In this document: positions 1 to 59,240 of the stretch, in pieces
Layout: each line of letters begins with the position of its first letter
Numbering within the stretch: the first letter of the stretch is position 1
Origin: an uncultured Bacteroidota bacterium
GTDB lineage: Bacteria > Bacteroidota > Bacteroidia > Chitinophagales > Chitinophagaceae
Assembly: GCA_963737475.1 (NCBI GenBank)
Contig: CAVTSY010000007.1
Location: 6,248-70,247 of the forward strand
DNA length: 64,000 nucleotides
Reading direction: 5' to 3'
Program-made: the position numbers and the translations under genes
Notes under the pieces: generated by a model
Told to the model about the DNA's origin: nothing
The model's input: the letters and a program-made list of their open reading frames with translations, nothing else
Database searches by the model: none

Positions 1-120
1 GCGCCATCCCACCTTTTGGACTTGATCCTGCTAATGCGGCAGAAGTTGTGCCCGTACATATAAATTGTGCATATAAAACCGTATTGTTTGAGATGGATAA
101 CTTATCCATATTGTACTGCT
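1..120 (-). pseudogene. Out-of-frame continuation of the adhesin repeat module past the stop of ORF 121..2478 (runs off the window)
   Basis: A shifted minus-strand frame reads 'KLSISNNTVLYAQFICTGTTSAALAGSSPKGG'. This copies the module '[30 protein letters not shown]' encoded at ~270-370. Nucleotide similarity of 1-110 to 271-372 is visible by eye. Confidence 0.45.
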
Positions 121-2478
121 TCATATATCAGAACATCCATCTGATGTTACCGTTCTTCTGTACCACGTGGTTTGCGTTAATGCTCCCGGTGTATAGTTGC
201 TACCATTGTTTGTTCCTGATGCAGAACCAAAAGTTGTATTATCTGTGCTGCTCTCCCATAAATATGCGTAAGTGCCATCTCCACCTGTTGGAGTTGATCC
301 TGTTAATGCGGCAGGAGTTGTGCCGGTACATATTGATTGTGCAGATAAAACCGTATTGTTTGAGATCACAGGATTAACTGTTACTGCTACATCATCCGAT
401 GCTGTGAATCCATTTCCATCAGTAATTGTTACCGTATATGTTCCAGCAGTTGATACAGAGATAGAAGAAGTAGTTTCATTTCCCGGGCTCCATAAATAAG
501 TAATTGTTGGATCACCGCTAACAGTTGTATTAAGAACTATTGAAGATCCGTTACAGATAGATGCACTTGGAAGATCATTATTTGCTGCATCTACAATATT
601 GACTGTAGGTGGAGCAAGTGTAATACCACTAAAACTTACCAAAGATGGGGCATTAACAACAGTAGTTGTCAGGGTTGCATTGAGAGGGCCCTGTTTTATC
701 CATGGCAATGTATTGTTGTATTGTGCTGCAGCAATGTTTGCAACTGAACCTACAACATCTGTCGCTAAATAATTCGCAGTGATAGTGTAGGTTGGGTTTC
801 CAACATTTGTATTTATATTCCAATAACGTTTGAGATAATTATTAGTATTTGTATTATTAGGATGTTTGGAGTTTACAGCCCTTACACCCACATAGGTATT
901 TGCTGAGTAGCTGCCAGCCGTAAAATTCAAATCAACAGGCGAATATTCAGAAGCACTTGTTCCAACAGGAAACAAATAAGCGAAGCTCGTGGTTAAAATT
1001 TTTCTTAATTCACCGGTTCCATTGGTAACGATGATCCCATTGTTTGCACCAAGATTACCCGTAATAGCAGGAGCCCCTGAACCCAGGATCAGATTTTGAT
1101 CGTTTAATTGAAGTGAGCCATTTAATGTAAGCAGATTTGTTATCGAAAGATCGTAAGTGTAAGTTATGTTACTGATCGTGCTTGTTGCAGGAACTAATTG
1201 TACAGAAGAATTTGCATTGACGGTAACGTTATATAAAGGTATGCCGGTATTAATTCTATATGTTCCTGCATTGGCACCAAACTGAAATACACCATCGGTA
1301 ATTGATTTCGCTCCACCGGGAATAATGAATAAATCAACCGGAGTCGCTGCAGTACTTGGGTTCTGAAATATGATCGTTCCACCAGATATATTAACTGAAG
1401 AACTTAATGACATATCAAAAGAACCCGTGTTGCCTGCCGCATTACCGATCGTACAAAGATTTATGATGCCTCCTGATATTGATACGCCACTTGACGTGAG
1501 TCCTGTTAATGGAGCACCGCTTGCAGTATTTTCCAGTCCTCCCGCTATATTAACTATACCACCTGAAACTTCGAATGAGCCATTGTTTTGTGTATGAGCA
1601 CTATTACCGGAATTTGTTCCAAAGTTTGCAGTACCATTACTAATTCGGATTAATCCATTATTAGTAATGGTATAATCTCCACTATTAAGACTTGCGCCAG
1701 GACCAGCTATCCAAATTCCTCCTGTTGATGGAATAGTAGGTCCTGAATTTCCACCAAATTGAAATGTCCCGGTTGTCATTTTAAACAATCCGTTCAGTAT
1801 AGAAAGAGCGCCAGTATTTGAAATGGCACCTGGACCATTTGATTCGAGAGCAGAAGTAACATCGACCCCTTTATCAACAATCATGTTATTAAAAGCAGTT
1901 GGAGAACTTCCGCCGATTGTAGTATTTACTGCGCCTTTAAACCTTACTGTGCCCGTTCCCGCACTAAATGTTCCATTGTTGGTCCAATGTCCGGCTACTT
2001 CAAGCGTTGTGCCTGCACTGAAAACCAGGGAACCATTCATATTAATTGCAATGTCAGTACAAGTGGGTGCAGGTGACCCTGCATCGATGGTAACTGTTGT
2101 GCCACCTGCAATGATTACATTGTCAGCGGGACCTGGAACAACTCCACAACTCCAGGTTGCAGGATCATTCCATGCCCCGGATGCTACAGATGTGCATGTT
2201 GCAGATCCTGATTCAAACTTTGAATCGTTATTTTTTTCGCCTAAATATTCCGAGCGAGAATAAAAAATATCTTTTTGCTGTGATAAGCCTGAAGAAAAAA
2301 TTGAAGTTGAAAAGAAATTTGGAAGAAGTTTTACCTGGGCATTTGAAAAAGAAAAAACAATTGAAAAAACCACGCATGAAAAAAGGCATAACAGCCTCCG
2401 CCGCGGAGTTTTTATGAAACTTCCAGGGGTCGAAAACTTGTGAAATAATTTTTCGTTTTGTAAAAAATGTTTCATCAA
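121..2478 (-). CDS. Large secreted repeat protein (adhesin-like; Gly/Thr/Asn-rich beta-helix-like N-half, Ig/PKD-like cysteine repeat modules at the C-end)
   Basis: 785-aa ORF. N-terminal hydrophobic signal ('[20 protein letters not shown]'). C-terminal module '[33 protein letters not shown]...[11 protein letters not shown]' is typical of Bacteroidota cell-surface/gliding-associated proteins. Confidence 0.6.
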
Positions 2479-3286
2479 ACCCTTAAAAAGATTTTTTAGG
2501 TTTTCGCAGGTTGACTTGGAATTAATGGAATAATAAGTCGTTCAGATAATTATCCCATTCACTATTTTATCAATGCAAATCACAATGCCGGAAACCGCGG
2601 GGTTTTTTAAAAGGATAGCATGATTCATTAAGGAAATAGAATCACAGAATGTTGAAGAATTCTCCGACTGTCAATTGAATTTTTATACAATCATTGTCGC
2701 GGGTCAAAGCAGTTGGTTTCGATTTGGCCATATCAATTCGTTTACGATTTAACAAATAAAACTAAGCGGCTTCTTAAGAAATTGGGCACCGGTGGCTATA
2801 GATAGGATCTTGTAGGAGAGTTCTTTGTAAGAACAGGAGAAACGATGATTTCTTTAAACCTATTTACGCTTTAATGACTTGACCACCAAAGTAGTAACAA
2901 TTGTTATAATGTTAATTAAAGACTAATTAGAATAAAATTAGAATAACATTAAAATTGCATTAAAGATCCCTCCAATTCTGTAGGTTTTTGATTCGCAGCA
3001 TATCTGTTGCGGTTTTACGAGATAACCTTCAAAGAAACTGGGTAATGTGGTTGTTGATAGAAGATTGGTACGGATAATCGCATAGAAATTGCGAGCTGAA
3101 TTACTTTGAAAACGGCTACAAACTAAAAAAAGTTTGTGATAATTAAAAGTAAATAGCCAAAGAAAAAATAGCAAGGATTTTTGACCGTCAAAGCCTTTAT
3201 ACTCAAGCCCTATTAATGGGTGTTACTCAATGGGCTACTCATCAAACCCACTGATTACCCAAAAAGTTGACCCCGCCTGTTAAGTC

Positions 3287-11224: not shown

Positions 11225-12904
11225 CTATTTTTCATGCATGGCTACTATGCCTGCCCCATTCTCAAAAATACCTTCGTCAATTATTTTCTTTGTGTTCCTG
11301 TAAAAGAATTTTGCCGTATGATCGCCCGGATCTGTTTCGACAACTTTTTTGAACGCAATGTTTGCTTCAGGAAATGATTTATTCAGAAATAAAGAAACGC
11401 CTTCATTAAAAACTGAAAGGGTGTTTAATTTTTTCTCCATATCAGGCAATGGATTGCTGTCAAAACATTCGTGAATTTCCACGGCTTCACGTTTGCCTTT
11501 CAATTGTACTAATCCAAGAGAGCGAAGATGAAAACCTTCTTTTTGCTCAATTTGTTTTAAAGAAGAATCACTGAGGATAATGTTTACGCTATAATGTTTG
11601 GTCAGGCTTTCCAGTCTTGATGCAATATTGACCGTATCAGAAATGGTGGTCGCGTCCATCCGGTTCGCATCCCCGGTAATACCCATTATCAATGGGCCCG
11701 TATGCATGCCCACCCCGATCTGTATTGGAATTTGATTGTTAGTGATCCTGGTCTTATTGAGATCCTGTACTTCTTTCTGCATCTCGATAGCCGCTGACAG
11801 CGCATCTTCAGCATTATGGGGAAAGATCGCCATAATGGCATCGCCGAGATACTGATTGATAAATCCATTGTGCCTGCGTATGGCAGGACCCATCCTCTCA
11901 TTGAATGCGCATACGAACTTAAAATTCTCCTCGGGGCTCATTTGCTCTGATAGAGACGTATAGTCCCGGATATCTGAGAAAAGAACGGTCACTATTTTCT
12001 CCACCTGGTCGCCAAGTTTCACATCGGTGATCACATTATGACCCAGTGACCCGATGAATTCATAAGGAACAAATTTTCCTGTCGCCTCATAAACAAGACG
12101 CATGGCTTCTTCTCTTTCCTTTGCTTCTCTCAGATTTTTTTCATAGAGTAACGCACTTTCAATGGCAGCAGAAGATTGTAACGCCAGGGTGGTGAGCAGT
12201 TTCAGATCCGCCGCGGTATACTGAACTAACTCATTGCTGGCAAGAATGATCGCCCCCATTGTCCGCTTGTTCACTTTCAATGCAGAATAAATAACAGATC
12301 TTACTTCAGGAAAAAGAACCCCGGCCTGGGATAATGCAGAAATATCGGTGATGATCTCGGATTGCCCGCTCAATAATATTTTACTAAGGAGACGTAATTC
12401 ACTGTACAGTTTTTCTTCAGCAAAAAATAATTCCCCTGAGGAAGCAAGGACCTTTAATCTTTCTGTCTCCTCATCCCACAGGATCACCACACCACTGTTT
12501 GAATTTATCACCCGCCCAGCTTCCTCTAATGTGATCTCGGAAATTGTTGGAGCATCAATGGTCTGCGCTAATCTTTCAGAAAAATTGTAGATCAGGTTTA
12601 TTTCCTGGTATAAATTCAAAACCTCGGATCCGAGCTTTCGCTTCTCGACTTCCTTTCTTATTGAGAGATTGAGGATAGCGGCAATGATCTTTGCTTCCTC
12701 ATCGCCTTTCACAACACCGATCGGTTCATTGTCAACTTCGATGACCTGTTCAACTCTGTGCGCTTCCGATCTATTGCCCAACAAAATGTTGCCCGTGTCA
12801 TCCTCGATCCAAACACCGGTATTTAACCGCTCAATTAAAGATGCGAGTATGGGAGCTGTTTCATTCTTTTTACTAAGAATACTTTTTAAAGTAAGTTTTA
12901 TCAT
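11225..12904 (-). CDS. GAF-domain class III adenylate/guanylate cyclase (soluble)
   Basis: 559-aa ORF. Cyclase blocks 'VTVLFSDIRDYTSLSE', 'NQYLGDAIMAIF', 'IGVGMHTGPLIMGITG', 'ISDTVNIASRLES'. GAF-like region at aa ~120-260. No TM segment. Confidence 0.85.
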   Translation of the reverse strand: MIKLTLKSILSKKNETAPILASLIERLNTGVWIEDDTGNILLGNRSEAHRVEQVIEVDNEPIGVVKGDEEAKIIAAILNLSIRKEVEKRKLGSEVLNLYQEINLIYNFSERLAQTIDAPTISEITLEEAGRVINSNSGVVILWDEETERLKVLASSGELFFAEEKLYSELRLLSKILLSGQSEIITDISALSQAGVLFPEVRSVIYSALKVNKRTMGAIILASNELVQYTAADLKLLTTLALQSSAAIESALLYEKNLREAKEREEAMRLVYEATGKFVPYEFIGSLGHNVITDVKLGDQVEKIVTVLFSDIRDYTSLSEQMSPEENFKFVCAFNERMGPAIRRHNGFINQYLGDAIMAIFPHNAEDALSAAIEMQKEVQDLNKTRITNNQIPIQIGVGMHTGPLIMGITGDANRMDATTISDTVNIASRLESLTKHYSVNIILSDSSLKQIEQKEGFHLRSLGLVQLKGKREAVEIHECFDSNPLPDMEKKLNTLSVFNEGVSLFLNKSFPEANIAFKKVVETDPGDHTAKFFYRNTKKIIDEGIFENGAGIVAMHEK

Positions 12905-12931
12905 GTGGGTGCAGGGTTGGGAAATGTAACA

Positions 12932-13315
12932 TCAATTTTGCAATTGAAGAACTTCTCTTGCTTTTTCTAAAATTTTTTCGGGGTCAAAAGGTTTTGTCAT
13001 GTATACATCGGCGCCCACTTCCTGCCCTTTTTGACGGTCCAGTTCCTGGCCCTTTGCAGTAAGTAAAACAATAAATACATCATTCAAGCCCAATTCTTTT
13101 TTTACTCGGCGGCAAACTTCCATGCCATTCATTTTAGGCATCATGACATCAAGAAAAACAAGCCGCGGCTTTTCTGCCTGTATGATCTCCAAAGCTTGTT
13201 CACCGTTTTCTGCCGTGAAAAAATTTACTCCCTCATCTTCCAGTTCTTCCAGCGTTTGCCCGATAAGCATACGGATATGTGCTTCATCATCCACAATCAA
13301 AAGTTTTTGTTCCAT
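12932..13315 (-). CDS. Single-domain response regulator (CheY-like receiver only)
   Basis: 127-aa ORF. 'LLIVDDEAHIR', 'RLVFLDVMMPKMNG', 'VLLTAKG', 'DVYMTKPF'. No output domain. Confidence 0.9.
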   Translation of the reverse strand: MEQKLLIVDDEAHIRMLIGQTLEELEDEGVNFFTAENGEQALEIIQAEKPRLVFLDVMMPKMNGMEVCRRVKKELGLNDVFIVLLTAKGQELDRQKGQEVGADVYMTKPFDPEKILEKAREVLQLQN

Positions 13316-13336
13316 TTTTAGTTTTCTCAGTTTTGT

Positions 13337-16300
13337 TTATTGATAAATTAAGAACAATACATTCTCCAATCCTTTTTCAAAGCGAAGCGACTGTACAATT
13401 TCCTGTTTGTCCGAAAGGACGGAATTTAAGATAATGATATCCGGTTGTGTAGAGATAGCCTTTTGAACCAATTCCTTTCCATCTGATTCCACAACATGGT
13501 AACCCTTAGCCTGCAACACGTCCGTCAAAGAGCGAACAGCCGCCCCATCTTCATCCACCACCATTACTTTTTTCTTTGATTTCCCCTGCTCCAATAAGGT
13601 TCCAACTTCTTTAAACAATTGTGCAGTATCAATTGGTTTTGTCAGGTACCTGTCCACACCGATACGATATCCCCGTGCTTTATCCTGCACTATCGACAAG
13701 ACAATAATCGGGATATCCATCGTTTGAGGATCATTCTTAAGAACGGCCGCCACATCAAATCCATTCATCTCCGGCATCATCACATCAAGGATGATCAGGT
13801 CAGGGCGGTTTTTGCGAACACTCTCCAATGCTTCTTTGCCATTGGTGGCCTGCTCTATCAAATATCCGGCATCACTAAGCTCCTGTTGCAATAATGACCG
13901 TATAGAATCATCATCATCTACAACAAGTATTGTCGCATCTTTTCCTATCACTTTGAATTTCGAGTTCGCCATTTGTTCTTTTAATTGCTTCACCAGGTCG
14001 TCAAAATGTACAGGCTTTTCTCTTTTGGAGTTAATGACAGGCAACGAAAAAGAAAAGGTACTTCCTTTCCCTACTTTGCTTTCCAGCCAGATGCGGCCGC
14101 CATGGTGTTCGACAATTTCTTTACAGATCGGCAAACCTAAACCCGTTCCCTTCGGTTTGTCAGTCAACGTATCACCCCCCACTTGTTTAAATTGTTCAAA
14201 CACGGCCGCATAATCTTCCGGCGCAATTCCAATACCTGTGTCAAGAACGCTAACAATGATCTCATCCTTTTTCTTATACACTTTGCAGGTAACAGAACCC
14301 TTGTCCGTGAATTTTACAGCATTTGAAATAAGGTTGATGATCACCTGGATCAGTTTATCACGATCACCGGAAATATCAGGGATATCCGTTTCAATTTCTC
14401 TTACCAGTTTTAATTTTTTCTGCTCGAACAAAGAAGTAGTTGCGGCGAGAGCTCTTTCCGCCACTTCCGTCATCGACACATTTTCCAGGTTCCATTCCAT
14501 TTTGCCGGCTTCTATCTTTGCCAAATCCAATACGTCATTGATAAGATGTGTGAGACGTTCGCCTTCGGATATTACCACTTCCAGGTTTTGAGATATCTGG
14601 CCGATCGTTTTTTCTGTTTTTGTATCTGATCTATCAACCGCGGGGAATATTTTTTCATCCAATCTTTTGCGGATGATCTTAGCAAAACCAAGAACAGATG
14701 TAAGTGGTGTTCTTAATTCATGACTCACTGTAGAAAGAAATGCGCTCTTCGCTTCATTTGCTTTTTCGGCCGCTTTACTGGCGGCTTCTGCTTCCATTTT
14801 CGCCATCTTGACATCTTCAAACAATGTTGCATTGCGTAAAGCAACTCCTACTGAAGCAGCAATTGTCGACAGAAGACGAAGGTCATCTTCGTTAAAACTA
14901 TTTTCGTGCTCCGTGCTTTGCACGCTCAGAACTCCGATTATTTCGTCGCCAACCGGGATAGGAACACCAAGATAAGAAGCCGCGGGCACGCCTTGAGATT
15001 GCACTCCCAACTTTGCTCTTAGTCCCTGGACATTTTCGTTGATCAGGAGAGGTTCACCCGAAAGAATGATTTTCGAAGTAAGACCCTCACCCAGTTTCAT
15101 TGGCCTGTTATCATCACCATGCTGATAAGGGAAATGGATCATCTTGGTTTTTGGATTCAACAAAGCCAGGTAAACTATATTGGCTTTGAAAAGATCTCTC
15201 AATTTATCGCCAACAAATTTTATCAGGTCGTCCGGATCCAATTGGGAAGCCAATGCCTTGCTGATGCTATTCACCGTGCTCAATTCAGACGCTCTCTGTT
15301 TTGCCTCAGACAACAAGTGAGTAGTCTCATCAAATAGTCTTGCATTCTCCAGCGCTACGCTCATACTGTTCGTAATTGTCGTAAGCAGCCTGATATCGGC
15401 ATCCGTGAAAGCATTTTCCTTATCTACGTTCTGGAGACTAACTGATCCTTTTACCACATCACCGACAAGCATAGGAACAAAAACGGCTGATTTAGGTGGT
15501 TGGCCCTTTGTGACGCCGGTACCTCCATGACTTTTTGCAGTGTCAAGGTAGTTTTGCCGAATATCCAGGGGTCTTTTTATTGATATAAGCTCTTTACTGG
15601 TCCAATTAAATGGCCTTGCTTCGATAGGGAAACGTTCTCCTTTTTCTATGGCGTAATGAAAATGCTCGATACCGGCTTCATGGTCAAACGTCCGTATGAC
15701 CAATGTTTGTGTATCGGGAAATAAACTGCAGAGGCGATCACCAACTACTTCATAAATTCCCTGCACATCCAGCTCTTTTGCCAAACCTTCCTGCACACTA
15801 TTGATAACAGCTAATTCAGCCGTACGCTGCTCTGTTTCCTTTAATAAGCGATTTGTTTCATCAAAGAGTCTTGCATTTTCCAGTGCCACACTCATGCTAT
15901 TCGCCAGTGTTTCAAGTAACCGGATATCAGATTCACTAAAGGCATTCTCTTTATCAACATTCTGAATGCTTACATACCCTTTGATATTGTTTCCGCTGAG
16001 AAGAGGAACAAACATCAGTGATTTGGGCATCTTCGTATCTCCTATTGCAACAATACCATATTCGTCTCTTGCTTTTTGCTCAGTGTCTATATAAAGAGTT
16101 TGCTTCAAATTAATAAGTGTTTGGCGTAAACCACTTATTGGCCGCGAGTCAAGAACATATTTCTCTCCGTTCTCAAACGCATAATTGAAATGCTCAGTTT
16201 TATTTGCAAGATCAAAGCTTGCTATGATCACGCCATGTGTCTGAAAAAGTTTTTGCACCCGTTCACCTACCAAATTATAAATGCCCTGCATGTCGAATTC

Positions 16301-19300
16301 TTTTGCCAAACCTTCCTGCACACTGTTAATGACCGCAAGTTCCGCCGTGCGTTGTTCCGTTTCTTTCAATAAACGACTCGTTTCGTCAAACAATCTTGCA
16401 TTTTCCAATGCCACGCTCATGCTGTTAGCAAGAGTTTGCAGGAGTGATAGGTCTGACTCGCTGTATGCATTCTCTCTTTCGTAATTTTCCAAACGAATTG
16501 TTCCATTCACTTGTCCACCGGAAATAAGCGGAACACCTAACCAGGATTTTGCTGTATCCTCTTCGGTTTCTGAAGAGGCAAACACAGCTCCAAGTTCTTT
16601 AAAACGTTCAACTGCATTTTCATTGATTAACAATGGCTGTGCTGTCTGTATTATGTGTGATGTTAACCCCTTACCAAGTTCAAAACCTAATTCAACAATA
16701 CGTTTGCCTTTAAACAGGTAATAGGGATGAGTAATAAAATTCTTTTCACGGTTATAATAGGAAATGGAGATTCCCTGCGTATCAAATACATCCCGGATCT
16801 TGTCCCCGACAAGATCATAAATGGCCTGGATATCCAGTTTGGAAGCAAGGCCTTCCTGAACACTGTTGATAATGCCGAGTTCAGCTGTACGCTGCTCTGT
16901 CTCCTTTAATAAGCGATTGGTTTCATCAAAGAGCCTTGCATTTTCCAATGCTACACTCATACTATTTGCCAGGGTAGTGAGAAGACTGATGTCTGACCTG
17001 GAAAATGCATTTTCATGGTCAAGATTTTGCAGGCTAATGACTCCTTTTACTTCACCTCCCGCAATCATCGGTACATACATTTGTGACTTTGGCATTTCAC
17101 CAATCAATATCTCGTTGCCGAAATCACGCATTGCCTGCTCTACATTATTATTGTGAACTAACAATTCTCCGGTCTCAATTACATGCTTTCTGAACCCTTT
17201 GGGTGGCCTTGCTTTTACCAGTGTCCTGTCACCTTTTTCATAGGAATATCTATCCTCGATCAGGTTTTTGCTACGATCATAAATAACGATATCAACTACC
17301 TGGGCTTTAAAAATTTTTCGGATCTTTTCTCCTACCAGTTCATAAATGGAATGCATATCCATTTGCGCCACCAAACCTTCCTGCACACTATTGATCACTG
17401 CCAGTTCGGAAGTACGTTGTTCAGTTTCTTTTAATAAGCGATTTGTTTCATCAAAGAGTCGCGCATTCTCCAGCGCTACGCTCATACTATTGGCTAACGT
17501 TTCAAGCAACCTTATGTGTGCGTCTGTAAAGGCATTTTCCTTATCAACATTTTGCAGTGTAACATAGGAGGTAATTTTATCCCCGATCATTAGCGGGACA
17601 AATACCGCAGATTTTATCATTTCCGTACCCGGCACTACTTCCGTTCCAAACCATGCGTGCACCTCTTCCTGCTTATTGACCACGACTTTCTTACGGGACT
17701 GAATCAGGTGAAGTCTCAACTTACCCAATGGTCTTGGCGCCGGATAGAAGCGCTGCCCTTTCTCTACAAAGTATTGGAATTTCTCAGTTCCTTCTTCCTG
17801 GTTGAGCGTAGCTATACCAACAACCTGCGCATCAAAAAGACTGCGGATCCTTTCACCTACCATGCTATAAATCGCATCAATATCCAGTTCTTTCGCCAAA
17901 CCTTCCTGTACACTATTTATTACCGCTAATTCTGCAGTACGTTGTTCGGTTTCTTTTAATAAGCGATTTGTTTCATCAAACAGCCTTGCATTTTCCAAAG
18001 CCACACTCATACTGTTGGCCAATGTCGTTAGTAGGTTTACATCAGAATCCGGAAATGCATTTTCCTGGTCGAGATTTTGTAAACTGATGACACCATTTAC
18101 TTCCCCGCTGGCGATAAGAGGTACCAATACAATTGATTTTGCACCTTTGCCAACGATAACAGTTTGATCATACTTTGTCCTTTGCGCATCCAGATTTTCA
18201 TTTATGACCAGGGCCTTTCCTGTGTCAAAAACAGATTTCCTGAATCCTTTCAATGGCCTCGGTCCTAATAAAGTCCGGTCGCCTTTTTCATAAGTATACC
18301 GGTCTTCGATCAGTTGCGTTCTTTTATCATAGGTCACAATGTCTATGACCTGCGCGTTGAATATTCCTCTGATTTTTTCACCCACCAATTCATAGATTCC
18401 CTGAATATCCAGCTCTCTTGCAAGTCCTTCCTGCACACTATTAATTACCGATAATTCGGCAGTGCGTTGTTCGGTTTCTTTTAATAACCGATTGGTTTCA
18501 TCAAAAAGTCTTGCATTTTCTAATGCCACACTCATACTACTGGCCAGGGTACCTAAGAGACGAACATCTGAGTGCGAAAAAGCATGCTCCTTATCAATAT
18601 TCTGAAGGCTTACATATCCGGTTACTTTATCCCCTACTTTCAAAGGCATAAACAAAAGTGATTTTGGAACTTCTGTCCCGGGAACCACTCTCATTCCAAA
18701 TTCAGCTGCTGCCTTGGCAAAATCTTCGTTAATCAGGATATTTTGACCTGTTTCAATCAGGTGTTGTCGCAGCCTGTCAAAACGCCGGGGGCCAGGATAA
18801 GTTACTTCCTCTTTCTCAACATGGTAATTGAAATACTCTAGCTTTTTTTCATGATCAAATGTGGCGATGATCACAGCCTGGGCATTAAAAAGCTTTTGAA
18901 CCCGCTCGCCTACCAAATTATAGATTCCCTTCATGTCTAGTTCCTTTGCTAACCCTTCCTGCACGCTATTGATTACTGCAAGTTCTGCGGTTCTTTGCTC
19001 GGTTTCTTTTAATAAGCGATTCGTTTCATCAAACAGGCGGGCACTTTCCAAAGCCACGCTCATACTATTCGCCAATGTAGTGAGCAGGCTTGCATCACTG
19101 CTGGAAAAGGCATGTTCATGGTCAAGATTCTGCAGGCTGATGACTCCCTTTACTTCATTGCCTGTGATCATGGGCACATACACTTGTGATTTAGGGATTT
19201 CTCCGATTAAAATTTCATTGCCAAACTCGCGCATGGCTCTTTCGACTTTTTCATTATGCAGAAGTAACTGTTTGGTTTCAATAACATGTTTTCGGAACCC

Positions 19301-22207
19301 TTTTACCTCGCGTGGACCGAGTAATGTCCTGTCCCCTTTTTCATAAGCATACCGGTCTTCGATCAGGTTTGCTTTAGGATCGTATGTTACAATATCAATG
19401 ACCTGCGCATCAAAAATCTCTCTGATTTTTTCACCCACTAATTCATAAATTCCCTGCATATCCATTTTTGCTACCAGGCTTTCCTGGACGCTGTTGATCA
19501 CCGCCAGTTCCGCATTACGTTGCTCAGTTTCTTTTAATAAGCGATTTGTTTCATCAAAACGCCGGGCACTTTCTAATGCCACACTCATGCTATTAGCTAA
19601 TGTTGTCAGAAGACTTACATCATTCTCAGAAAAAGCGTGCTCCTTGTCGAGATTCTGCAGACTGATCATCCCTTTAACTTCGTTCCGGGAAATTAAAGGA
19701 ACAAAAACGGCAGATTTCGGTTGCTCTCCACGAATGACATTACTGCTCTGTTCCTTTGCTTTTTCGTCAAGTCCCTCATTGATCAACAGCAATTGACCCG
19801 TATCGATGACAATTCGCCTGAAGCCTGCTGGCTTCCATTTACCTACCAAAGTCCTGTCTCCTTTTTCATAAGCATACCGGTCTTCGATCAGGTCCGTTTT
19901 GGGATCGTATGTTACAATGTCCACCACCTGTGAATTAAAAATCTCTCTTATTTTTTCACCAACCAACTCATAGATCCCCTGTATTTCCAACTCTTTGGCC
20001 AATCCATCCTGTACACTATTTATCACTGATAGCTCAGCAGTTCGTTGTTCAGTTTCTTTCAATAAGCGAATCGTTTCATCAAACAGTCTCGCATTTTCCA
20101 ATGCCACGCTCATGCTGTTAGCCAATGTTTCCAAAAGCCGAACATCTGATTCAGAAAAAGCATTTTCCTTATCTACATTTTGCAAGCTTACATAACTGGT
20201 AACTTTATTGCCTACAATTAACGGAACATATAGTAGTGATTGGGGCATATCTGTTCCCTTCACTACCTTAAGTCCAAACTCTTCAAATGCTTTCTCAACA
20301 TTATTATTGATGAGAATTTTTTGTTTTGTCATTATAAGCTGGTAGCGCAACTTATCATAAGGGCGAGGTTCCGGGTAATAACGTTCTCCCTTTTCAATCA
20401 AATAATTGAATTTTTCTTTCCCCGTATCGTGATCAAATGTGGCTATAATAACTGCCTGGGCATCGAACACATCACGGATCTTATTGCCAACCAGTTCGTA
20501 GATCGCCTGCATGTCCAGTTCGCGGGCTAAGCCTTCCTGCACGCTGTTAATGACGGCGAGCTCCGCTGTACGCTGCTCCGTTTCTTTTAATAAACGTGTT
20601 GTTTCATCAAATAATCTGGCATTTTCAAGAGCAACACTCATGGAATTTGCCAAAGTTTCCAGCAAACGAATATCGGATTCGCTGAAGGCATTTTCCATTT
20701 GCATGTTCTGCAAACTGATGTAACTATTCACCTTATCACCAATGATCAGCGGAACAAACACTCCTGATTTAGTGGGATTAGTGCCCGGCAATGTTTTCAA
20801 TCCGAAGCGGGCGTAAGCTTCTTCATAATTTGTATTGATAACAATTTTTTGCCCCGTAATGATCAGATGTTGTCTTAGTTTGTCATATGGACGAGGTGGC
20901 AAATAAAATCTCTGCCCGTCTTCAATAAGATATTTGAAATGTTCAGTAGCAGTTTCATGATCAAAATTGGCGATCATAACAGCTTGCGCATTGAACAACT
21001 CACGGATCCTGTTCCCGACAAGATCATAAATAGCCTGCATGTCCAGTTCCTTTGCCAAACCTTCCTGCACGCTGTTGATTACTCCCAATTCAGCCTTTTG
21101 CTGTTCGGTTTCTTTTAACAGCCGTGTGGTCTCATCGAAAAGTCTTGCATTTTCCAATGCGACGCCCATACTGTTTGCAAGCGTTTCCAACAATCTCACA
21201 TCCGAATCACTAAAAGCGTTTTCCTTGTCAATATTTTGAAGACTAATGTATCCGGTTACTCTTTCGCCAATAACCAATGGAACATACACGGCGGATTTTG
21301 GTAATTCAGTTCCGGGAATCTTTTTCAGTCCGAATGTGGAGGCTACCTCTTCAAAATTCTTATTGATCAATATCTTTTCCCTTGTTGCAATAAGGTGTTT
21401 CCTTAAAATATTCAAAGGTTTGGGCGCGGGATAATACCGTTCACCTTTCTCGATGAGGTAATGGATATGCTCCATTTCAGTTTTATGATCGAACGTGGCG
21501 ATTCCTACTGCCTGTGCATCAAATAAGTCGCGAATCCGATCCCCGACAAGGTCATAAATTGTTTGTATATCTAATTCCTTCGCCAGCGCCTCCTGAACGC
21601 TATTGATCACGGCGAGTTCGGCCGTTCTTTGCTCTGTCTCTCTTAGCAGCCGCGCATTCTCCAATGCATTACTCATGCTGTTCGCAAGTGTTTCTAATAA
21701 TCTCACATCGGAATCACTGAATGCATTTTCCTTATCGACGTTCTGAAGACTCACATAACCCGTAACGTTGTCATCGATAAGGAGCGGAACATACAAGGCA
21801 GATTTCGGAAAGTCTGAACCGGGAAGTACCCTCATTCCAAATTGGCGATAAGCTTCTTCAAAGTTTTCATTGATAAGTATCCTTTGTTTAGTATCAATAA
21901 GACTTCGCCTAAGCTTATCGAATTCCCGTGGTTTCAGGTGAAACCGTTCGCCTTTTTCGATGGCGTATCCGAAATGTTCTGTATTTGTTTCATGATCGAA
22001 AGTCGCTATAATAACTGCCTGCGAATCAAAAGTATCACGAATGCGATCTCCGACAAGGTCATAGATCGCCTGCATGTCCATCTTCCGGGCAAGACCTTCC
22101 TGGACGCTATTTATTACCGCCAGTTCTTCGGTTCGTTGACTTAGCTCTGCCGTTAACTGTGTTATGGTTTTTTGCAGCTCATCATACCCTGCTTTTTCTT
22201 CTATCAT
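13337..22207 (-). CDS. Soluble hybrid sensor histidine kinase: 14 tandem GAF domains, HisKA, HATPase_c, receiver, truncated pseudo-receiver
   Basis: Uninterrupted 2,956-aa ORF. 13 'INSVQ' anchors plus one degenerate 'VNSISK'. H-box 'FLSTVSHELRTPL' (His ~aa 2496; ~14720-14770). ATPase boxes 'NLISNAVKFT', 'DTGIGI', 'GTGLGLPICK' (~14033-14500). Receiver 13583-13936 ('ILVVDDDD', 'LIILDVMMPEMNG'). Tail 13340-13570. Confidence 0.9.
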   Translation of the reverse strand: MIEEKAGYDELQKTITQLTAELSQRTEELAVINSVQEGLARKMDMQAIYDLVGDRIRDTFDSQAVIIATFDHETNTEHFGYAIEKGERFHLKPREFDKLRRSLIDTKQRILINENFEEAYRQFGMRVLPGSDFPKSALYVPLLIDDNVTGYVSLQNVDKENAFSDSDVRLLETLANSMSNALENARLLRETEQRTAELAVINSVQEALAKELDIQTIYDLVGDRIRDLFDAQAVGIATFDHKTEMEHIHYLIEKGERYYPAPKPLNILRKHLIATREKILINKNFEEVASTFGLKKIPGTELPKSAVYVPLVIGERVTGYISLQNIDKENAFSDSDVRLLETLANSMGVALENARLFDETTRLLKETEQQKAELGVINSVQEGLAKELDMQAIYDLVGNRIRELFNAQAVMIANFDHETATEHFKYLIEDGQRFYLPPRPYDKLRQHLIITGQKIVINTNYEEAYARFGLKTLPGTNPTKSGVFVPLIIGDKVNSYISLQNMQMENAFSESDIRLLETLANSMSVALENARLFDETTRLLKETEQRTAELAVINSVQEGLARELDMQAIYELVGNKIRDVFDAQAVIIATFDHDTGKEKFNYLIEKGERYYPEPRPYDKLRYQLIMTKQKILINNNVEKAFEEFGLKVVKGTDMPQSLLYVPLIVGNKVTSYVSLQNVDKENAFSESDVRLLETLANSMSVALENARLFDETIRLLKETEQRTAELSVINSVQDGLAKELEIQGIYELVGEKIREIFNSQVVDIVTYDPKTDLIEDRYAYEKGDRTLVGKWKPAGFRRIVIDTGQLLLINEGLDEKAKEQSSNVIRGEQPKSAVFVPLISRNEVKGMISLQNLDKEHAFSENDVSLLTTLANSMSVALESARRFDETNRLLKETEQRNAELAVINSVQESLVAKMDMQGIYELVGEKIREIFDAQVIDIVTYDPKANLIEDRYAYEKGDRTLLGPREVKGFRKHVIETKQLLLHNEKVERAMREFGNEILIGEIPKSQVYVPMITGNEVKGVISLQNLDHEHAFSSSDASLLTTLANSMSVALESARLFDETNRLLKETEQRTAELAVINSVQEGLAKELDMKGIYNLVGERVQKLFNAQAVIIATFDHEKKLEYFNYHVEKEEVTYPGPRRFDRLRQHLIETGQNILINEDFAKAAAEFGMRVVPGTEVPKSLLFMPLKVGDKVTGYVSLQNIDKEHAFSHSDVRLLGTLASSMSVALENARLFDETNRLLKETEQRTAELSVINSVQEGLARELDIQGIYELVGEKIRGIFNAQVIDIVTYDKRTQLIEDRYTYEKGDRTLLGPRPLKGFRKSVFDTGKALVINENLDAQRTKYDQTVIVGKGAKSIVLVPLIASGEVNGVISLQNLDQENAFPDSDVNLLTTLANSMSVALENARLFDETNRLLKETEQRTAELAVINSVQEGLAKELDIDAIYSMVGERIRSLFDAQVVGIATLNQEEGTEKFQYFVEKGQRFYPAPRPLGKLRLHLIQSRKKVVVNKQEEVHAWFGTEVVPGTEMIKSAVFVPLMIGDKITSYVTLQNVDKENAFTDAHIRLLETLANSMSVALENARLFDETNRLLKETEQRTSELAVINSVQEGLVAQMDMHSIYELVGEKIRKIFKAQVVDIVIYDRSKNLIEDRYSYEKGDRTLVKARPPKGFRKHVIETGELLVHNNNVEQAMRDFGNEILIGEMPKSQMYVPMIAGGEVKGVISLQNLDHENAFSRSDISLLTTLANSMSVALENARLFDETNRLLKETEQRTAELGIINSVQEGLASKLDIQAIYDLVGDKIRDVFDTQGISISYYNREKNFITHPYYLFKGKRIVELGFELGKGLTSHIIQTAQPLLINENAVERFKELGAVFASSETEEDTAKSWLGVPLISGGQVNGTIRLENYERENAYSESDLSLLQTLANSMSVALENARLFDETSRLLKETEQRTAELAVINSVQEGLAKEFDMQGIYNLVGERVQKLFQTHGVIIASFDLANKTEHFNYAFENGEKYVLDSRPISGLRQTLINLKQTLYIDTEQKARDEYGIVAIGDTKMPKSLMFVPLLSGNNIKGYVSIQNVDKENAFSESDIRLLETLANSMSVALENARLFDETNRLLKETEQRTAELAVINSVQEGLAKELDVQGIYEVVGDRLCSLFPDTQTLVIRTFDHEAGIEHFHYAIEKGERFPIEARPFNWTSKELISIKRPLDIRQNYLDTAKSHGGTGVTKGQPPKSAVFVPMLVGDVVKGSVSLQNVDKENAFTDADIRLLTTITNSMSVALENARLFDETTHLLSEAKQRASELSTVNSISKALASQLDPDDLIKFVGDKLRDLFKANIVYLALLNPKTKMIHFPYQHGDDNRPMKLGEGLTSKIILSGEPLLINENVQGLRAKLGVQSQGVPAASYLGVPIPVGDEIIGVLSVQSTEHENSFNEDDLRLLSTIAASVGVALRNATLFEDVKMAKMEAEAASKAAEKANEAKSAFLSTVSHELRTPLTSVLGFAKIIRKRLDEKIFPAVDRSDTKTEKTIGQISQNLEVVISEGERLTHLINDVLDLAKIEAGKMEWNLENVSMTEVAERALAATTSLFEQKKLKLVREIETDIPDISGDRDKLIQVIINLISNAVKFTDKGSVTCKVYKKKDEIIVSVLDTGIGIAPEDYAAVFEQFKQVGGDTLTDKPKGTGLGLPICKEIVEHHGGRIWLESKVGKGSTFSFSLPVINSKREKPVHFDDLVKQLKEQMANSKFKVIGKDATILVVDDDDSIRSLLQQELSDAGYLIEQATNGKEALESVRKNRPDLIILDVMMPEMNGFDVAAVLKNDPQTMDIPIIVLSIVQDKARGYRIGVDRYLTKPIDTAQLFKEVGTLLEQGKSKKKVMVVDEDGAAVRSLTDVLQAKGYHVVESDGKELVQKAISTQPDIIILNSVLSDKQEIVQSLRFEKGLENVLFLIYQ
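14798..22114 (-). repeat. In-frame tandem array of 14 GAF-coding units (period 525-540 nt; first unit 507 nt)
   Basis: Unit boundaries taken at the Ile of 'INSVQ', high coordinate of each: 22114, 21607, 21079, 20551, 20023, 19498, 18973, 18445, 17920, 17395, 16870, 16330, 15805, 15274. I checked the codons at 21605-21607 and 20021-20023 directly. Confidence 0.85.
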
Positions 22208-22268
22208 TGCAGCTCTTCTTTAATAATGGTGGTTCAGAAATGCTTGATGGGAAAAACTTTGTGTAGGG

Positions 22269-22298
22269 TAAATATAGCACTCTTTGCCCAAGTACAAA
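22269..22298 (-). promoter_or_regulatory. Weak Bacteroidota-type promoter candidate upstream of the multi-GAF kinase
   Basis: Minus strand reads TTTG-N18-TATATTTA (near TAnnTTTG), about 60 nt upstream of the ATG at 22207. Confidence 0.2.
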
Positions 22299-22408
22299 GC
22301 GCCGTTCTATTTGATTTTTGTTGAAAAATTGAGGCGGCGCAAGATAAGATCCTGCTACTGTTTTTCGCGAGATTGCCCGCGAATAATCTGCCAGGGCTTT
22401 AGATGAGG

Positions 22409-22924
22409 TCAATCTCTGGCTAAGGAGACATTTTGTTTTGAAGGTTGGATCTTAAATCCATTGTCCCTGGCAAATATTTTCTGCGCTTTCTGCATCTCGG
22501 CGATCATTTTATCTTCCTTGCTGATGATCATCGTCATTATCTGCAATTGGATCTGCCTTCCCTCAGGTGAGTTTTGCAATCCATAGTTTTTATAACTGGT
22601 ATAAATGCTTTTCATGTAATCGAAATAGTGGAGCGCTGCCTTCTTGAAATTTTCGCCCTGTTTCACGCGGGGAGCTGGCTTCTTTGCAATTTCCTTAATG
22701 ATCGTATCGATCGTTATCTCCATTCTGCCGCTAATGCTGGCTATGCTATCGTATTGGTAAGAGGCAAAACAGTTTTTTAATAGGGGCGCCGCGTGGTCCA
22801 TATTTTTTCCCAGGCTTTTTTGTTTTTCGACGATCATGTCATTATAGTTCATGGCAATTTTTGACTTGCATCCTATTCCCAAAAAACAGACGATGGCAAT
22901 CGCAACAATCGTTTTACATTTCAT
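22409..22924 (-). CDS. Hypothetical lipoprotein
   Basis: 'MKCKTIVAIAIVCFLGIGC' lipobox from the ATG at 22924. No recognisable family. Confidence 0.5.
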   Translation of the reverse strand: MKCKTIVAIAIVCFLGIGCKSKIAMNYNDMIVEKQKSLGKNMDHAAPLLKNCFASYQYDSIASISGRMEITIDTIIKEIAKKPAPRVKQGENFKKAALHYFDYMKSIYTSYKNYGLQNSPEGRQIQLQIMTMIISKEDKMIAEMQKAQKIFARDNGFKIQPSKQNVSLARD

Positions 22925-23280: not shown

Positions 23281-23312
23281 AAAAAGCCTCCCGACAAAGT
23301 CGAAAGGCTTTC
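23281..23312 (-). terminator. Rho-independent terminator of the rrn operon
   Basis: Minus strand: 'agcctttcgac-ttt-gtcgggaggct' (11-bp stem including 2 G:U pairs) followed by TTTTT, ~10 nt after the 5S 3' end. Confidence 0.55.
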
Positions 23313-23321
23313 AATAAATAT

Positions 23322-23430
23322 GGCAGCTACCTACTCTCCCGCATTGTGGTGCAGTACCATCGGCCATGAGGGGCTTAACTTCTCTGTTCGGTATGGGAAG
23401 AGGTGAACACCCTCGGAAAAACCACCATAA
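23322..23430 (-). rRNA. rrf: 5S ribosomal RNA
   Basis: Reverse complement contains 'CCCATACCGAACAGAGAAGTTAAGCCCCTCATGGCCGATGGTACTGC...GGGAGAGTAGGTAGCTGCC'. Ends are approximate. Confidence 0.85.
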
Positions 23431-23559
23431 AGAGTTAAGCTATGAGCTATTAGCAATGAGCTTTGAGCTTTTGGCTCATGGCTCGCAGCTAGTTGCTCGC
23501 AGCTGAATTAAATCAACATATCGGAGTTGTTAGAAAAGTATCTAAGAAAAAAAAATTAA

Positions 23560-26368
<2,809 letters not shown>

Positions 26369-26691
26369 AAAAAAATTAGAAACTAGAATTTGTTATTCTT
26401 GTAGTTGTTACCCGACCACATAAACTTCAGACCAACCAATAATGGTGTGTTCTAAAAAATGTGATCGATAAAATTATTAGATACTCGTCTAACAACTTTC
26501 CCAATATGTCAAAGAGCTATCGCGGATTTACGGATTACTCAGAATTCCACGCATGCTGATGATCAGGTTTCGAGCCCGGAGGTCTGATAAACATTGAAGA
26601 GTTTATCAACCAACATCATATTTTAAAAGAACTTTTCAATCATTCGAACTAAAAACAGTGAAATCACTTCAAATCATTTAATCCATGATCG

Positions 26692-26765
26692 TGGAGGATA
26701 TCGGAATCGAACCGATGACCCCTAGCTTGCAAAGCTAGTGCTCTAGCCAGCTGAGCTAATCCCCC
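26692..26765 (-). tRNA. tRNA-Ala (anticodon UGC), CCA not encoded
   Basis: Reverse complement 'GGGGGATTAGCTCAGCTGGCTAGAGCACTAGCTTTGCAAGCTAGGGGTCATCGGTTCGATTCCGATATCCTCCA'. The G3:U70 wobble (alanine identity element) is present. Confidence 0.9.
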
Positions 26766-26853
26766 GTTAGGGTCATTGAGTCATTAGGTCATCAAGCCAT
26801 CAACACTTTTCCAATTGACTTATTGACTTATTGACTTACTGACTAAGTTTAAG

Positions 26854-26928
26854 TAGACCCGAGCAGATTTGAACTGCTGACCCCTACATTATCAGTGTAG
26901 TGCTCTAACCAGGCTGAGCTACGGATCT
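26854..26928 (-). tRNA. tRNA-Ile (anticodon GAU), CCA not encoded
   Basis: Reverse complement 'AGATCCGTAGCTCAGCCTGGTTAGAGCACTACACTGATAATGTAGGGGTCAGCAGTTCAAATCTGCTCGGGTCTA'. Acceptor stem AGATCCG/CGGGTCT. Confidence 0.9.
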
Positions 26929-27150
26929 ATTTGATATAGCTCCAAGCCCCATGCTTCACGCTTCAAGCAAAACTTGCAGCTTGTAGCTTACAGCTTGCAG
27001 CTGTTAGTAGCCCACTCACCGATAGCTATCGGGACTAGCGGGTTTACATTAAATATTTAAAAGAACTTGACATAAAAAAATTGAAAGTTTGGGGAAACAA
27101 CAGCAGGCAAATCCATAGAGGCAATGCATGCATTGCCTCAACAGCTCTAA

Positions 27151-28680
<1,530 letters not shown>

Positions 28681-28860
28681 GTAAATGTTGTTTGATACTG
28701 ACATTATTAATTCAAAGAATTAACGTGTCAAATCGAATTGTTTTCGCTTGACTTACCTATTGTTGTTGTCCTTAGTTTGACACTAAAGACAGCCAACGTG
28801 CTGTTGCTTCCCAACTTTCAAAGATCTTTTGGCCTTTTCAGCCTCCCATTTTTGGGAGTG

Positions 28861-35028: not shown

Positions 35029-35988
35029 TTACCTAGGCCCTTTGTAAGTATACAATTCATCAAAGCTAACTCTGTGAGGTGTAATTACCGATGGTTGATC
35101 CATCCAATATTTTACACTCAAATTCTTAGTAGATGCATCCCACAAATTTGTCCCGGAAGGATCAAGTGCAGCAGATCTCCCGTTACCTGAAGGTTGACCG
35201 TAAGGATTGGTAACACTTACAACCTGATCAGTGTTTGGATCAAACGTAAATTCCATTCCGAAACTTCCATAATAACTCCAGTCAGGTCCGTTCAATATTG
35301 GATGTAACACATAATCATTCTCAACATCCCATACAATTACGGAATTAGGTCCTGATGTACGGAATTCCACATCCCATGGATAATTTCCTGTAAGGCTGGA
35401 ATTTGCATAATCAACCATTGTCCCCGTAGCAGTATATTTACCGTCATACTTATTCTTTACGCCAATGTTATAAATAATTTCAGAGGCTTCGCTATTGATC
35501 ACTGCACTACCCGCATCAGCTACCGAGAAAGCAAGGGCATACTGTTGAGATAAATCTAACAGACTTTGATCTACAACGATTTTAACTCCCTTTATAGCTT
35601 CACCGGGTTGAAATGTAAGATTATTGATATCATCCAACAACGTATAAGCCGCAGGTGGAAGTTCAATGAATGAAGTATTGTTGTTATTGTTGAAAGTATC
35701 TATCAAGGAAGGGTCGCTTTGCAATTTTACAGTTAAAGGTTGATTCAAATCTCCTTCTGTGTTTGGATAACGACGTAAATCAATGAGCTCAAAGGTGTCT
35801 TTTGTTGGCTTAACATCCCTCGCATAGGCTACTAAGTCTGGTGCTCCCATTAATTTTACTACTTGTTTCCTAGCAGATTCATCTGAATTCTCTTTATACG
35901 TATCGTCTTTCTTCACACAACTGACAAATGCAGTTGCAAGCAGCAGGAATAAGAAAGAAAAATGAGTCAGGCGCATTATATTTTTCAT
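35029..35988 (-). CDS. Surface lipoprotein accessory to SusC/SusD (DUF1735/BT_3987-like N-domain suspected)
   Basis: Lipobox 'LLLATAFVSC'. 'LPPAAYTLLDD...LTFQPGE...ALAFSVAD' resembles DUF1735-type PUL lipoproteins (from memory). Immediately downstream of the SusD gene. Confidence 0.5.
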   Translation of the reverse strand: MKNIMRLTHFSFLFLLLATAFVSCVKKDDTYKENSDESARKQVVKLMGAPDLVAYARDVKPTKDTFELIDLRRYPNTEGDLNQPLTVKLQSDPSLIDTFNNNNNTSFIELPPAAYTLLDDINNLTFQPGEAIKGVKIVVDQSLLDLSQQYALAFSVADAGSAVINSEASEIIYNIGVKNKYDGKYTATGTMVDYANSSLTGNYPWDVEFRTSGPNSVIVWDVENDYVLHPILNGPDWSYYGSFGMEFTFDPNTDQVVSVTNPYGQPSGNGRSAALDPSGTNLWDASTKNLSVKYWMDQPSVITPHRVSFDELYTYKGPR

Positions 35989-36013
35989 GTTAGAAATAGT
36001 TTATAATATTAAA

Positions 36014-37459: not shown

Positions 37460-37467
37460 TTTTAAAT

Positions 37468-40716: not shown

Positions 40717-40967
40717 GTGAAAGTCAATTTTTAATTAAAAGCAATAAGTTAAAATCCCATTTCAAAAGAAGGGGAATTGAAACGAGACAACCCTACCTTT
40801 TGAAATGCTGCGCCAAAGAAAAAGAATTTTTAACAATTTTTAAAAAAAACAATTTTTTTGAGCTCTATATTTTAAAAATAAAAATCCAAGACTATTAAAA
40901 CGAAGCACTTTTTTAAACTTTCTAAAAAACAACCCAACATTTCTTGACCCTAATTAACATATTAAAG

Positions 40968-40999
40968 AATAAGGCCACTTCAATTGAAGTGGCCTTATT
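40968..40999. terminator. Perfect palindromic hairpin between the two Sus loci (terminator of locus 2)
   Basis: 'aataaggccacttcaattgaagtggccttatt'. 25 nt after the stop at 41025. Confidence 0.5.
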
Positions 41000-41024
41000 A
41001 TAAATGTCCAGGTGTTAAAATGTT

Positions 41025-41504: not shown

Positions 41505-41520
41505 ATTTAAGTGAAAATTT

Positions 41521-42173: not shown

Positions 42174-42191
42174 ACTTAATCTTTTAAATTT

Positions 42192-43666: not shown

Positions 43667-43676
43667 GATTTAATTT

Positions 43677-59218: not shown

Positions 59219-59240
59219 ACAATTGTTTGCTAAAATCATT

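Follow-up and report, generated by a model that had tools for sequence, protein, structure and literature searches.

The question raised by a 64,000-nucleotide (nt) stretch of contig CAVTSY010000007.1 (assembly GCA_963737475.1, positions 6,248 to 70,247), which derives from an uncultured bacterium of the Chitinophagaceae and is referred to here as the window, is whether three consecutive genes for a hybrid histidine kinase, a stand-alone receiver and a nucleotide cyclase (Table 1) encode a single signalling pathway and, if so, by which route the kinase would reach the cyclase. A first-pass annotation of the window had proposed a pathway in which a GAF-sensed signal is turned into cyclic AMP (cAMP) or cyclic GMP (cGMP) entirely within the cytoplasm, with the receiver acting either as connector or as phosphate sink. 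Since the three genes were found to be kept together in every related Chitinophagaceae genome examined, they very probably encode one two-component pathway with a cyclic nucleotide, and not DNA binding, as output. We infer, with about even confidence, that the route runs from the kinase via the stand-alone receiver to the cyclase in trans, including the transfers, contacts and product that this implies.

For the comparison of gene neighbourhoods, a profile of the cyclase family was used, which matched 230 places in contigs of one genome per species; the best 80 of these were taken with 10-kb flanks, and 7 further loci were taken from metagenome contigs. The receiver gene was located immediately upstream of the cyclase gene in all 82 loci with room for it, and a kinase core immediately upstream of the receiver in all 76 loci with room, both gaps being a few tens of nt in most loci. 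Given this recurrence, the arrangement is not a matter of chance, and the synteny on which the first-pass reading depended is borne out. In the window, the three open reading frames (ORFs) lie on the minus strand with gaps of 21 nt between kinase and receiver (13316-13336) and 27 nt between receiver and cyclase (12905-12931), just as first annotated, and neither gap contains a terminator-like site. The order extends to remote cassettes. In locus L087 (5502-9704), where cyclase, receiver and kinase core are 37%, 65% and 53% identical to those of the window and the hybrid kinase has 709 amino acids (aa) and a single GAF, only 2 nt separate the kinase gene from the receiver gene, and the latter shares 14 nt with the cyclase gene; in locus L086 (480-2551), with a cyclase 41% and a receiver 74% identical, the overlap of these two genes is 1 nt. 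Such abutting and overlapping genes suggest translational coupling in the remote cassettes. No fourth gene is conserved downstream, any given gene being shared by at most 10 of 71 loci. As the order of the trio is kept in all informative loci and no further gene is conserved with it, the trio is, judged from these sequence comparisons, a discrete, ancient and fixed cassette. Its carriers include at least two cultured species, Flavisolibacter ginsengisoli DSM 18119 and Ginsengibacter hankyongi BR5-29.

Two observations on the flanks of the cassette may be added. The cassette of L087 adjoins a tryptophan biosynthesis operon, and 9 of 71 loci (L003, L004, L005, L013, L029, L033 and others) carry a co-directional ORF of ~160-200 aa located 10-750 nt past the cyclase gene, which is absent from the window.

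The stand-alone receiver consists of a Response_reg domain only (Pfam) and possesses the full set of phospho-residues, and by these features it is a single-domain response regulator of the CheY type. A set of 80 orthologues shows no variation at D9, D10, D56, T86, Y105 and K108; the alpha4-beta5-alpha5 region is invariant as well, and the C-terminal half as a whole mostly so. With a median identity of 86% to the window protein, the receiver surpasses both the kinase core (81%) and the cyclase (62%) in conservation.

In the kinase, Pfam recognised 14 GAF stretches followed by HisKA, HATPase_c and Response_reg domains; an identical 2956-aa product is on record in a public collection. The predicted phospho-accepting residue, His2496 (14720-14722), lies in an H-box (SHELRTPL) that is invariant in 67 orthologues, and the LiiLDvMMP, LS and KP motifs of the fused receiver are likewise conserved. 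The H-box histidine and the acceptor aspartate of the fused receiver are conserved in these 67 orthologues and, together with the HATPase_c domain, define the protein as a HisKA hybrid histidine kinase. The C-terminal tail matches positions 1-54 of the 111 positions of the Response_reg profile (expectation value (E) 7e-5, below the curated cut-off) and can be described as a half-receiver or pseudo-receiver. It carries Asn2928 (13424-13426) in place of the acceptor aspartate (Ala in the remote L087) within a sequence, PDIIIlNS...RFEkGLENVlF..Yq, that is conserved in orthologues, and it is predicted to be incapable of being phosphorylated. Maximum Kyte-Doolittle values in a 19-residue scan were 1.67 for the kinase, 0.79 for the receiver and 1.18 for the cyclase, the kinase peak corresponding to a GAF beta-strand that contains a glutamate. 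This confirms that none of the three proteins has transmembrane (TM) segments, and the Pfam domain content agrees with the earlier statement that the trio has no DNA-binding output.

The cyclase was described in the first pass as a GAF plus class III cyclase without a receiver of its own, and this description stands. The strings FSDIRDYTSLSE, YLGDAIMAIF and GMHTGPLIMGITG are all present in the translation, and Pfam recognised a GAF domain and a Guanylate_cyc domain (PF00211; 76.0 bits versus a cut-off of 21.9) and no receiver. The family profile matched the solved class IIIb cyclases bPAC and OaPAC with E ~1e-23, and in the alignment to these proteins D311 and D355 occupy the metal-binding positions and N426 and R430 the transition-state positions. 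All four residues are invariant in 15 family members (alignment A1), so that the loss of catalytic residues, which would have undone the first-pass reading, is not observed. The significant PF00211 match, together with metal and transition-state residues in one chain, identifies the protein as a homodimer-competent class III nucleotidyl cyclase.

The residues that specify the base are less conventional. Gln351, which is invariant in the family including its remote members, occupies the position of the adenine-specifying lysine (the K of ..TKFIGD.. in bPAC), and the second specificity position is Thr419, with Thr, Cys or Ala in the family. This combination corresponds neither to the canonical adenylyl signature (Lys plus Asp in class IIIa or Thr in class IIIb) nor to the canonical guanylyl signature (Glu plus Cys, Ser or Gly), and the first-pass wording 'cAMP or cGMP' was rightly left undecided. 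Since a glutamine stands in place of the adenine-specifying lysine, the product is not predictable from these residues; our best guess is cAMP. Rv0386 of Mycobacterium tuberculosis, which has Gln/Asn at the two positions, was reportedly found by Castro et al. in 2005 to be an adenylyl cyclase with guanylyl side activity and is, to our knowledge, the only precedent for Gln at the lysine position. It is composed of a cyclase domain, an ATPase and a LuxR-type helix-turn-helix (HTH) domain. Rv0386 thus has the glutamine in common with the cassette family and differs from it in the second residue, which is Asn instead of Thr, Cys or Ala, as well as from the window cyclase in architecture. Its adenylyl activity with guanylyl side activity is echoed in a preprint (bioRxiv 10.1101/2024.03.06.583649).

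Outside of the GAF and catalytic domains, the cyclase contains an N-terminal domain and a C-terminal tail resembling TPR helices. In an AlphaFold2 model, the N-domain (~115 aa) is composed of a helix, four strands and a long helix with a predicted local distance difference test score (pLDDT) of 72-90; the GAF domain is modelled well, and the three-helix TPR-like tail has a pLDDT of 85-93. The N-domain matched no Pfam family at E values up to 10 and the tail had no significant Pfam match. The N-domain is kept in every cassette, at identities from 37% to 100%.

Many long Bacteroidota proteins also end in this catalytic domain and TPR tail, which are ~50% identical there and have the same glutamine. 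Gln is found at the lysine position in 61 of the 67 subfamily representatives in which a motif search located the site, and the replacement of Lys by Gln is, as far as these sequences tell, a hallmark of a large cyclase subfamily of Bacteroidota. In the scanned samples, this module is fused to receivers (P0160, P0237, P0249 and P0135), to Y_Y_Y ectodomains (P0228 and P0210) and to PAS and TPR domains (P0124). P0160 and P0237 are ~50% identical to the window cyclase over the catalytic domain and tail and share the F[IV]NQYLGD motif; the fused receivers are 24-35% identical to the stand-alone receiver. Such fusions would make control by a receiver a natural design for this clade of cyclases and support, by analogy, a connecting role of the stand-alone receiver. 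On the basis of these fusions within the same subfamily and of the extreme conservation of the receiver, we favour a connector over a sink. The proteins with the F[IV]NQYLGD module, which were collected in a representative search (P0121-P0270), constitute a large subfamily with lengths of up to about 1800 aa, of which we know of no characterised member.

The pathway model that we prefer is based on gene order and its conservation, on domain content, and on the intact phosphotransfer and catalytic residues. According to this model, the soluble and presumably dimeric kinase would integrate its input via a rod-like array of 14 GAF units with signalling helices and autophosphorylate at His2496, from which the phosphoryl group would be transferred directly to Asp56 of the stand-alone receiver. 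Asp2808 of the fused receiver would act as a competing intramolecular acceptor or as a gate, and the non-phosphorylatable half-receiver tail might serve as a docking or regulatory element. The phosphorylated receiver would bind to the cyclase, most likely to its N-terminal domain or GAF module, which occupy the place of the receiver domains in the fused relatives, and this binding would alter the activity of the homodimeric class III catalytic domain and thereby modulate the synthesis of a cyclic nucleoside monophosphate (cNMP).

Several points weigh against this model. The contact between receiver and cyclase is itself a predicted one. The receiver of the fused relatives stands in place of the N-domain and GAF and not beside them, so that the fusions speak by analogy, and a fusion of the stand-alone receiver with an N-domain-GAF cyclase was not seen in the scanned samples. 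The N-domain matched none of the known receiver-binding folds, the Foldseek search of the cyclase model was dominated by GAF matches and was uninformative on the N-domain, and the catalytic domain was modelled poorly (mean pLDDT 64, from an alignment of 15 sequences). The cyclase, with a GAF of its own, could be controlled by a small ligand alone, and the hybrid kinase may follow the textbook route via an Hpt protein, perhaps encoded elsewhere in the genome.

The latter route would be a four-step relay from His2496 via Asp2808 to an unlinked Hpt protein and from there to the stand-alone receiver and the cyclase. It would suit a canonical hybrid kinase with a conserved acceptor aspartate, as hybrid kinases commonly use Hpt shuttles, and only 64 kb of the genome are visible here. 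A missing linked Hpt is not in itself remarkable. A dedicated shuttle would, however, be expected to travel with a cassette that is kept so rigidly, and we found neither a fourth gene conserved beside the trio nor an Hpt domain. As noted in the first pass, none is visible in the window (no PF01627 match in the trio, in the other ORFs of at least 110 aa or in the smaller ORFs tested), and there was none among the Pfam-annotated neighbours of six related loci. We consider this relay unlikely. The receiver could also do no more than take up phosphate as a sink or regulate the kinase by feedback, with the cyclase obeying the ligand of its own GAF and the linkage reflecting co-expression, or the product feeding back on the GAF array. 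Single-domain receivers are known in such roles from CheY1 of Sinorhizobium, LovR and DivK, and the GAF of the cyclase is in line with this view. A pure sink, though, would not need 86% identity throughout the family and an invariant output face, the internal receiver of the kinase could already serve as one, and the kinase would be left without any output; this explanation is possible but on the unlikely side. As for feedback by the product, the best solved match of the profile of the kinase GAF units is the cAMP-binding GAF of Lcd1 (5W10, E 2.4e-10), a match that is modest (43.7 bits) and closely followed by GAFs for heme and other ligands. Being the sole hint in this direction, it provides a weak lead to a possible cNMP feedback on the array. 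A more elaborate version, in which the phosphorylated receiver would switch the GAF-cyclase by docking to its N-domain, the glutamine would direct synthesis beyond plain cAMP (to cGMP or mixed cNMPs), and the poly-GAF array would be a tunable product-binding integrator with feedback, strikes us as rather improbable; it would make the cassette a kind of two-component output not yet described.

Finally, the cyclase might be a pyrimidine cyclase of the Pycsar type and the locus an anti-phage defence island. The PycC models of PADLOC match the catalytic domain (best E 8.5e-20, 69 bits), and the non-canonical base-specifying residues leave the product undecided. The strength of the match is comparable to that of Pfam Guanylate_cyc (76 bits) and reflects generic class III homology; solved class IIIb adenylyl cyclases give a much stronger match (E ~1e-23) than does the 229-aa chain 7R65 (E 2.7e-5), which we take to be a Pycsar cyclase. 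In addition, the neighbours of the cyclase gene are the receiver gene and an M14 peptidase gene and not an effector gene (cNMP binding plus TM segments or TIR), and the cassette has a fixed place among housekeeping genes and is vertically conserved across the family instead of patchy. In the absence of a cNMP-activated effector beside the PycC-like gene, the defence reading was rejected on context and is extremely improbable.

Coming back to the input side of the kinase in the preferred model, the GAF array has a period of ~176 aa (525-540 nt) and a nearly invariant connecting helix (...ENARLFDETNRLLKETEQRTAELAVINSVQEGLA...). At least two subtypes can be distinguished among units 1-13, which share 46-81% identity with one another; the last unit, 14, adjoins the kinase core and has 30-39% identity to the other units. 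In a repeat search at the DNA level, the copies, spaced by 525-540 nt, showed 60-79% identity, which marks them as old, maintained duplications and not as an assembly artefact. Tandem Repeats Finder reported no array, the period being above the 500-nt limit of the method. The lengths of complete orthologous kinases lie between about 670 and 3062 aa, reaching ~3484 aa in a relative of 92% identity, and their units of the window type number 1 to about 17. Among relatives with cyclases 77-92% identical, 13 units were counted in L084 (1074-9416) and L085 (1190-9535), 14 in the window and L083, and ~17 in L082 (1-9568). Unit-by-unit matching revealed that whole units were gained or lost; as some units, such as the seventh of the window kinase in comparison with L084, have no one-to-one orthologue, gain and loss of GAF units appear to be ongoing.

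Many orthologues (L003, L012, L035, L063 and others) begin with a Reg_prop/Y_Y_Y ectodomain of ~780 aa before the first GAF, flanked in L003, L035 and L063 by a clear signal peptide and a TM helix. According to an approximate split based on N-termini, Pfam and hydropathy, ~29 of 40 complete orthologues are of this membrane type, with signal peptide, periplasmic Reg_prop/Y_Y_Y sensor, TM helix and 1-10 GAFs, and 11 start like the window kinase with a helix preceding the first GAF and have 7-12 GAFs. The latter start is shared by L084 and L085 of the close clade. The window kinase aligns to that of L003 from residue ~802, right after the TM helix of L003; no remnant of the ectodomain was found upstream of it, and it has lost the ectodomain altogether. 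The claim of a fully cytoplasmic, GAF-sensing pathway therefore holds for the clade of the window and some others and fails for the ~29 orthologues with a periplasmic sensor. By this comparison, the cytoplasmic design is a recurrent variant and not the rule of the family. In most members, the GAF units stand between periplasmic sensor and kinase, and in view of these sensors the GAF array is not necessarily the primary sensor. The domain order of most kinase orthologues, i.e. signal peptide, Reg_prop/Y_Y_Y ectodomain, TM helix, HisKA, HATPase_c and receiver, is shared with the hybrid two-component systems (HTCS) of Bacteroides, which have a C-terminal AraC-type DNA-binding domain and control polysaccharide-utilisation loci. 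The cassette kinases differ from these in having GAFs between TM helix and kinase and a half-receiver tail, in lacking a DNA-binding domain, and in being encoded with a separate receiver and cyclase. The window kinase itself has neither ectodomain nor TM helix nor HTH domain, and the orthologues with an ectodomain also lack the HTH domain, so that they do not classify as HTCS. A structural parallel to the GAF array is offered by poly-HAMP arrays, which are described as variable numbers of tandem modules on a helical backbone between input and kinase or output, i.e. in the same position between sensor and kinase (PMC13446029). HAMP modules are four-helix units of ~50 aa, in contrast to GAF units of ~176 aa with a potential ligand pocket.

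Of the systems with a cyclase output, Pil-Chp of Pseudomonas aeruginosa is functionally the closest and provides a precedent for a hybrid kinase, a receiver and a cyclase acting in trans. Its kinase ChpA is of the CheA type with several Hpt domains and is fed by a chemoreceptor and pili, and its cyclase CyaB sits in the membrane and contains a MASE2 domain. CyaB lacks the N-domain plus GAF of the window cyclase, cyaB lies outside of the operon, a GAF array is missing, and the proteins of the two systems are homologous at the domain level only. Common to both are a kinase with fused receiver (ChpA), stand-alone receivers (PilG and PilH) and a class III cyclase under control in trans (CyaB), with cAMP, and not DNA binding, as output in Pil-Chp (PMC10519157, PMC3019171); cAMP in a delta-pilG mutant is as low as in a delta-cyaB mutant (PMC10519157). 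CyaB1 and CyaB2 of Anabaena resemble the window cyclase in having GAF N-terminal to a class III catalytic domain with a helical linker in between. For cyclases of this type, control of activity by a GAF ligand is said to have been established by Kanacher et al. in 2002. They have tandem cAMP-binding GAFs plus PAS, canonical adenine-specifying residues and no dedicated kinase or receiver partners; in the window cyclase, by comparison, there is only one GAF, an N-domain is added, a TPR-like tail follows the catalytic domain, and Gln occupies the lysine position. Receiver-cyclase fusions are represented by CyaC of cyanobacteria and CyaA/B of Myxococcus, besides the four Bacteroidota proteins mentioned above. 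In such proteins, receiver phosphorylation controls a class III cyclase, as proposed for the cassette, with the difference that the receiver is fused in cis directly to the linker, whereas the receiver of the window is separate and the place in cis is taken by N-domain and GAF. In architecture, the cassette unites traits of GAF-cyclases such as CyaB1/2, of receiver-cyclase fusions, of HTCS-type sensors (in the orthologues) and of arrays of repeated modules.

With regard to its surroundings, the unit is bounded downstream by the convergent M14 peptidase gene, and the remaining neighbours in the window are housekeeping or polysaccharide-uptake genes. The intergenic region in front of the kinase start codon would be the probable site of the operon promoter. 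Between the kinase gene and a complete rRNA operon (23318-28682, minus strand), which lies just upstream of the cassette and is closed by a strong hairpin terminator at 23282-23312, there is a lipoprotein gene. The corresponding upstream ORF of 188 aa was considered as a hidden Hpt or fourth member of the cassette and was rejected, as it encodes a lipoprotein with a lipobox and its conservation next to the kinase gene is confined to the closest clade (L083-L085, 68-88% identical), the other loci lacking it. Three genes elsewhere in the window are split into overlapping or adjacent ORFs, namely DprA (54424-55363, two ORFs), a TonB-dependent receptor (43677-46915, three ORFs) and a LytS-type kinase with Reg_prop/Y_Y_Y (55675-58861, two ORFs), which suggests frameshift errors in the assembly or pseudogenes; the 8.9-kb ORF of the hybrid kinase is intact despite this. 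The split kinase gene belongs to a second, unrelated two-component system on the plus strand (55675-61372), in which a Reg_prop/Y_Y_Y sensor that ends in a LytS-type His_kinase domain is paired with a response regulator of receiver and LytTR domains (60605-61372). Loci of the polysaccharide-utilisation type occupy 35029-46915 on the minus strand; they contain two SusC/SusD-like pairs, each of a TonB-dependent receptor and a SusD-like lipoprotein, together with accessory surface proteins.

Table 1 Features of the kinase-receiver-cyclase locus and its upstream region in the window.
Feature	Position	Strand	Length or residues	Remarks	Basis
Hybrid histidine kinase gene	13337..22207	minus	2956 aa		ORF list; Pfam; hydropathy
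Array of 14 GAF units (kinase)	14762..22150	minus	aa ~20-2482		unit boundaries, identities, DNA repeats
Kinase core	14036..14752	minus	HisKA aa 2486-2568, HATPase_c aa 2614-2724		Pfam
Fused receiver (kinase)	13604..13930	minus	aa 2760-2868	acceptor Asp2808 (13784-13786)	Pfam Response_reg, 103 bits
C-terminal half-receiver (pseudo-receiver) tail (kinase)	13340..13576	minus	aa ~2878-2956, ~79 residues		Response_reg profile
Stand-alone receiver gene	12932..13315	minus	127 aa	CheY-like, without output domain	ORF list; Pfam
Nucleotide cyclase gene	11225..12904	minus	559 aa		ORF list; Pfam
Cyclase layout			N-domain 1-117, GAF 118-249, helical linker plus KFVPYEFIGSLG element 250-302, catalytic domain 303-473, TPR-like tail 486-559		
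Intergenic region before kinase ATG	22208..22408	minus	201 nt		sequence read
Lipoprotein gene	22409-22924	minus	~171 aa	ATG at 22924; lipobox GIGC; without Pfam family	
16S rRNA	27151-28682	minus			
tRNA-Ile		minus			
tRNA-Ala		minus			
23S rRNA	23553-26371	minus			
5S rRNA	23318-23429	minus			

A search of the accessible literature library returned no paper on this cassette, on the Gln-type cyclases of Bacteroidota or of relevance to class III cyclases of Bacteroidota, and cyclic-nucleotide signalling in this phylum is almost unstudied. The wiring of a two-component system to a second messenger, as such, is already known; the cassette, with a receiver that would act in trans and a rigid linkage of kinase, receiver and cyclase, is a variant of it that appears to be new. 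What is notable about it is this linkage, the unit-wise expansion of the GAF array and the change from Lys to Gln; no current concept is overturned. The latter change, running throughout a large subfamily, marks a set of cyclases whose product is not predictable from the canonical signatures. As a rigid module of three proteins, all of them soluble, the trio lends itself to being rebuilt in vitro in order to test how a two-component system drives a cyclase in trans, and the natural series of kinases, whose GAF units number from 1 to about 17 and which may or may not carry a periplasmic sensor, amounts to an experiment on the passage and integration of signals through tandem modules.

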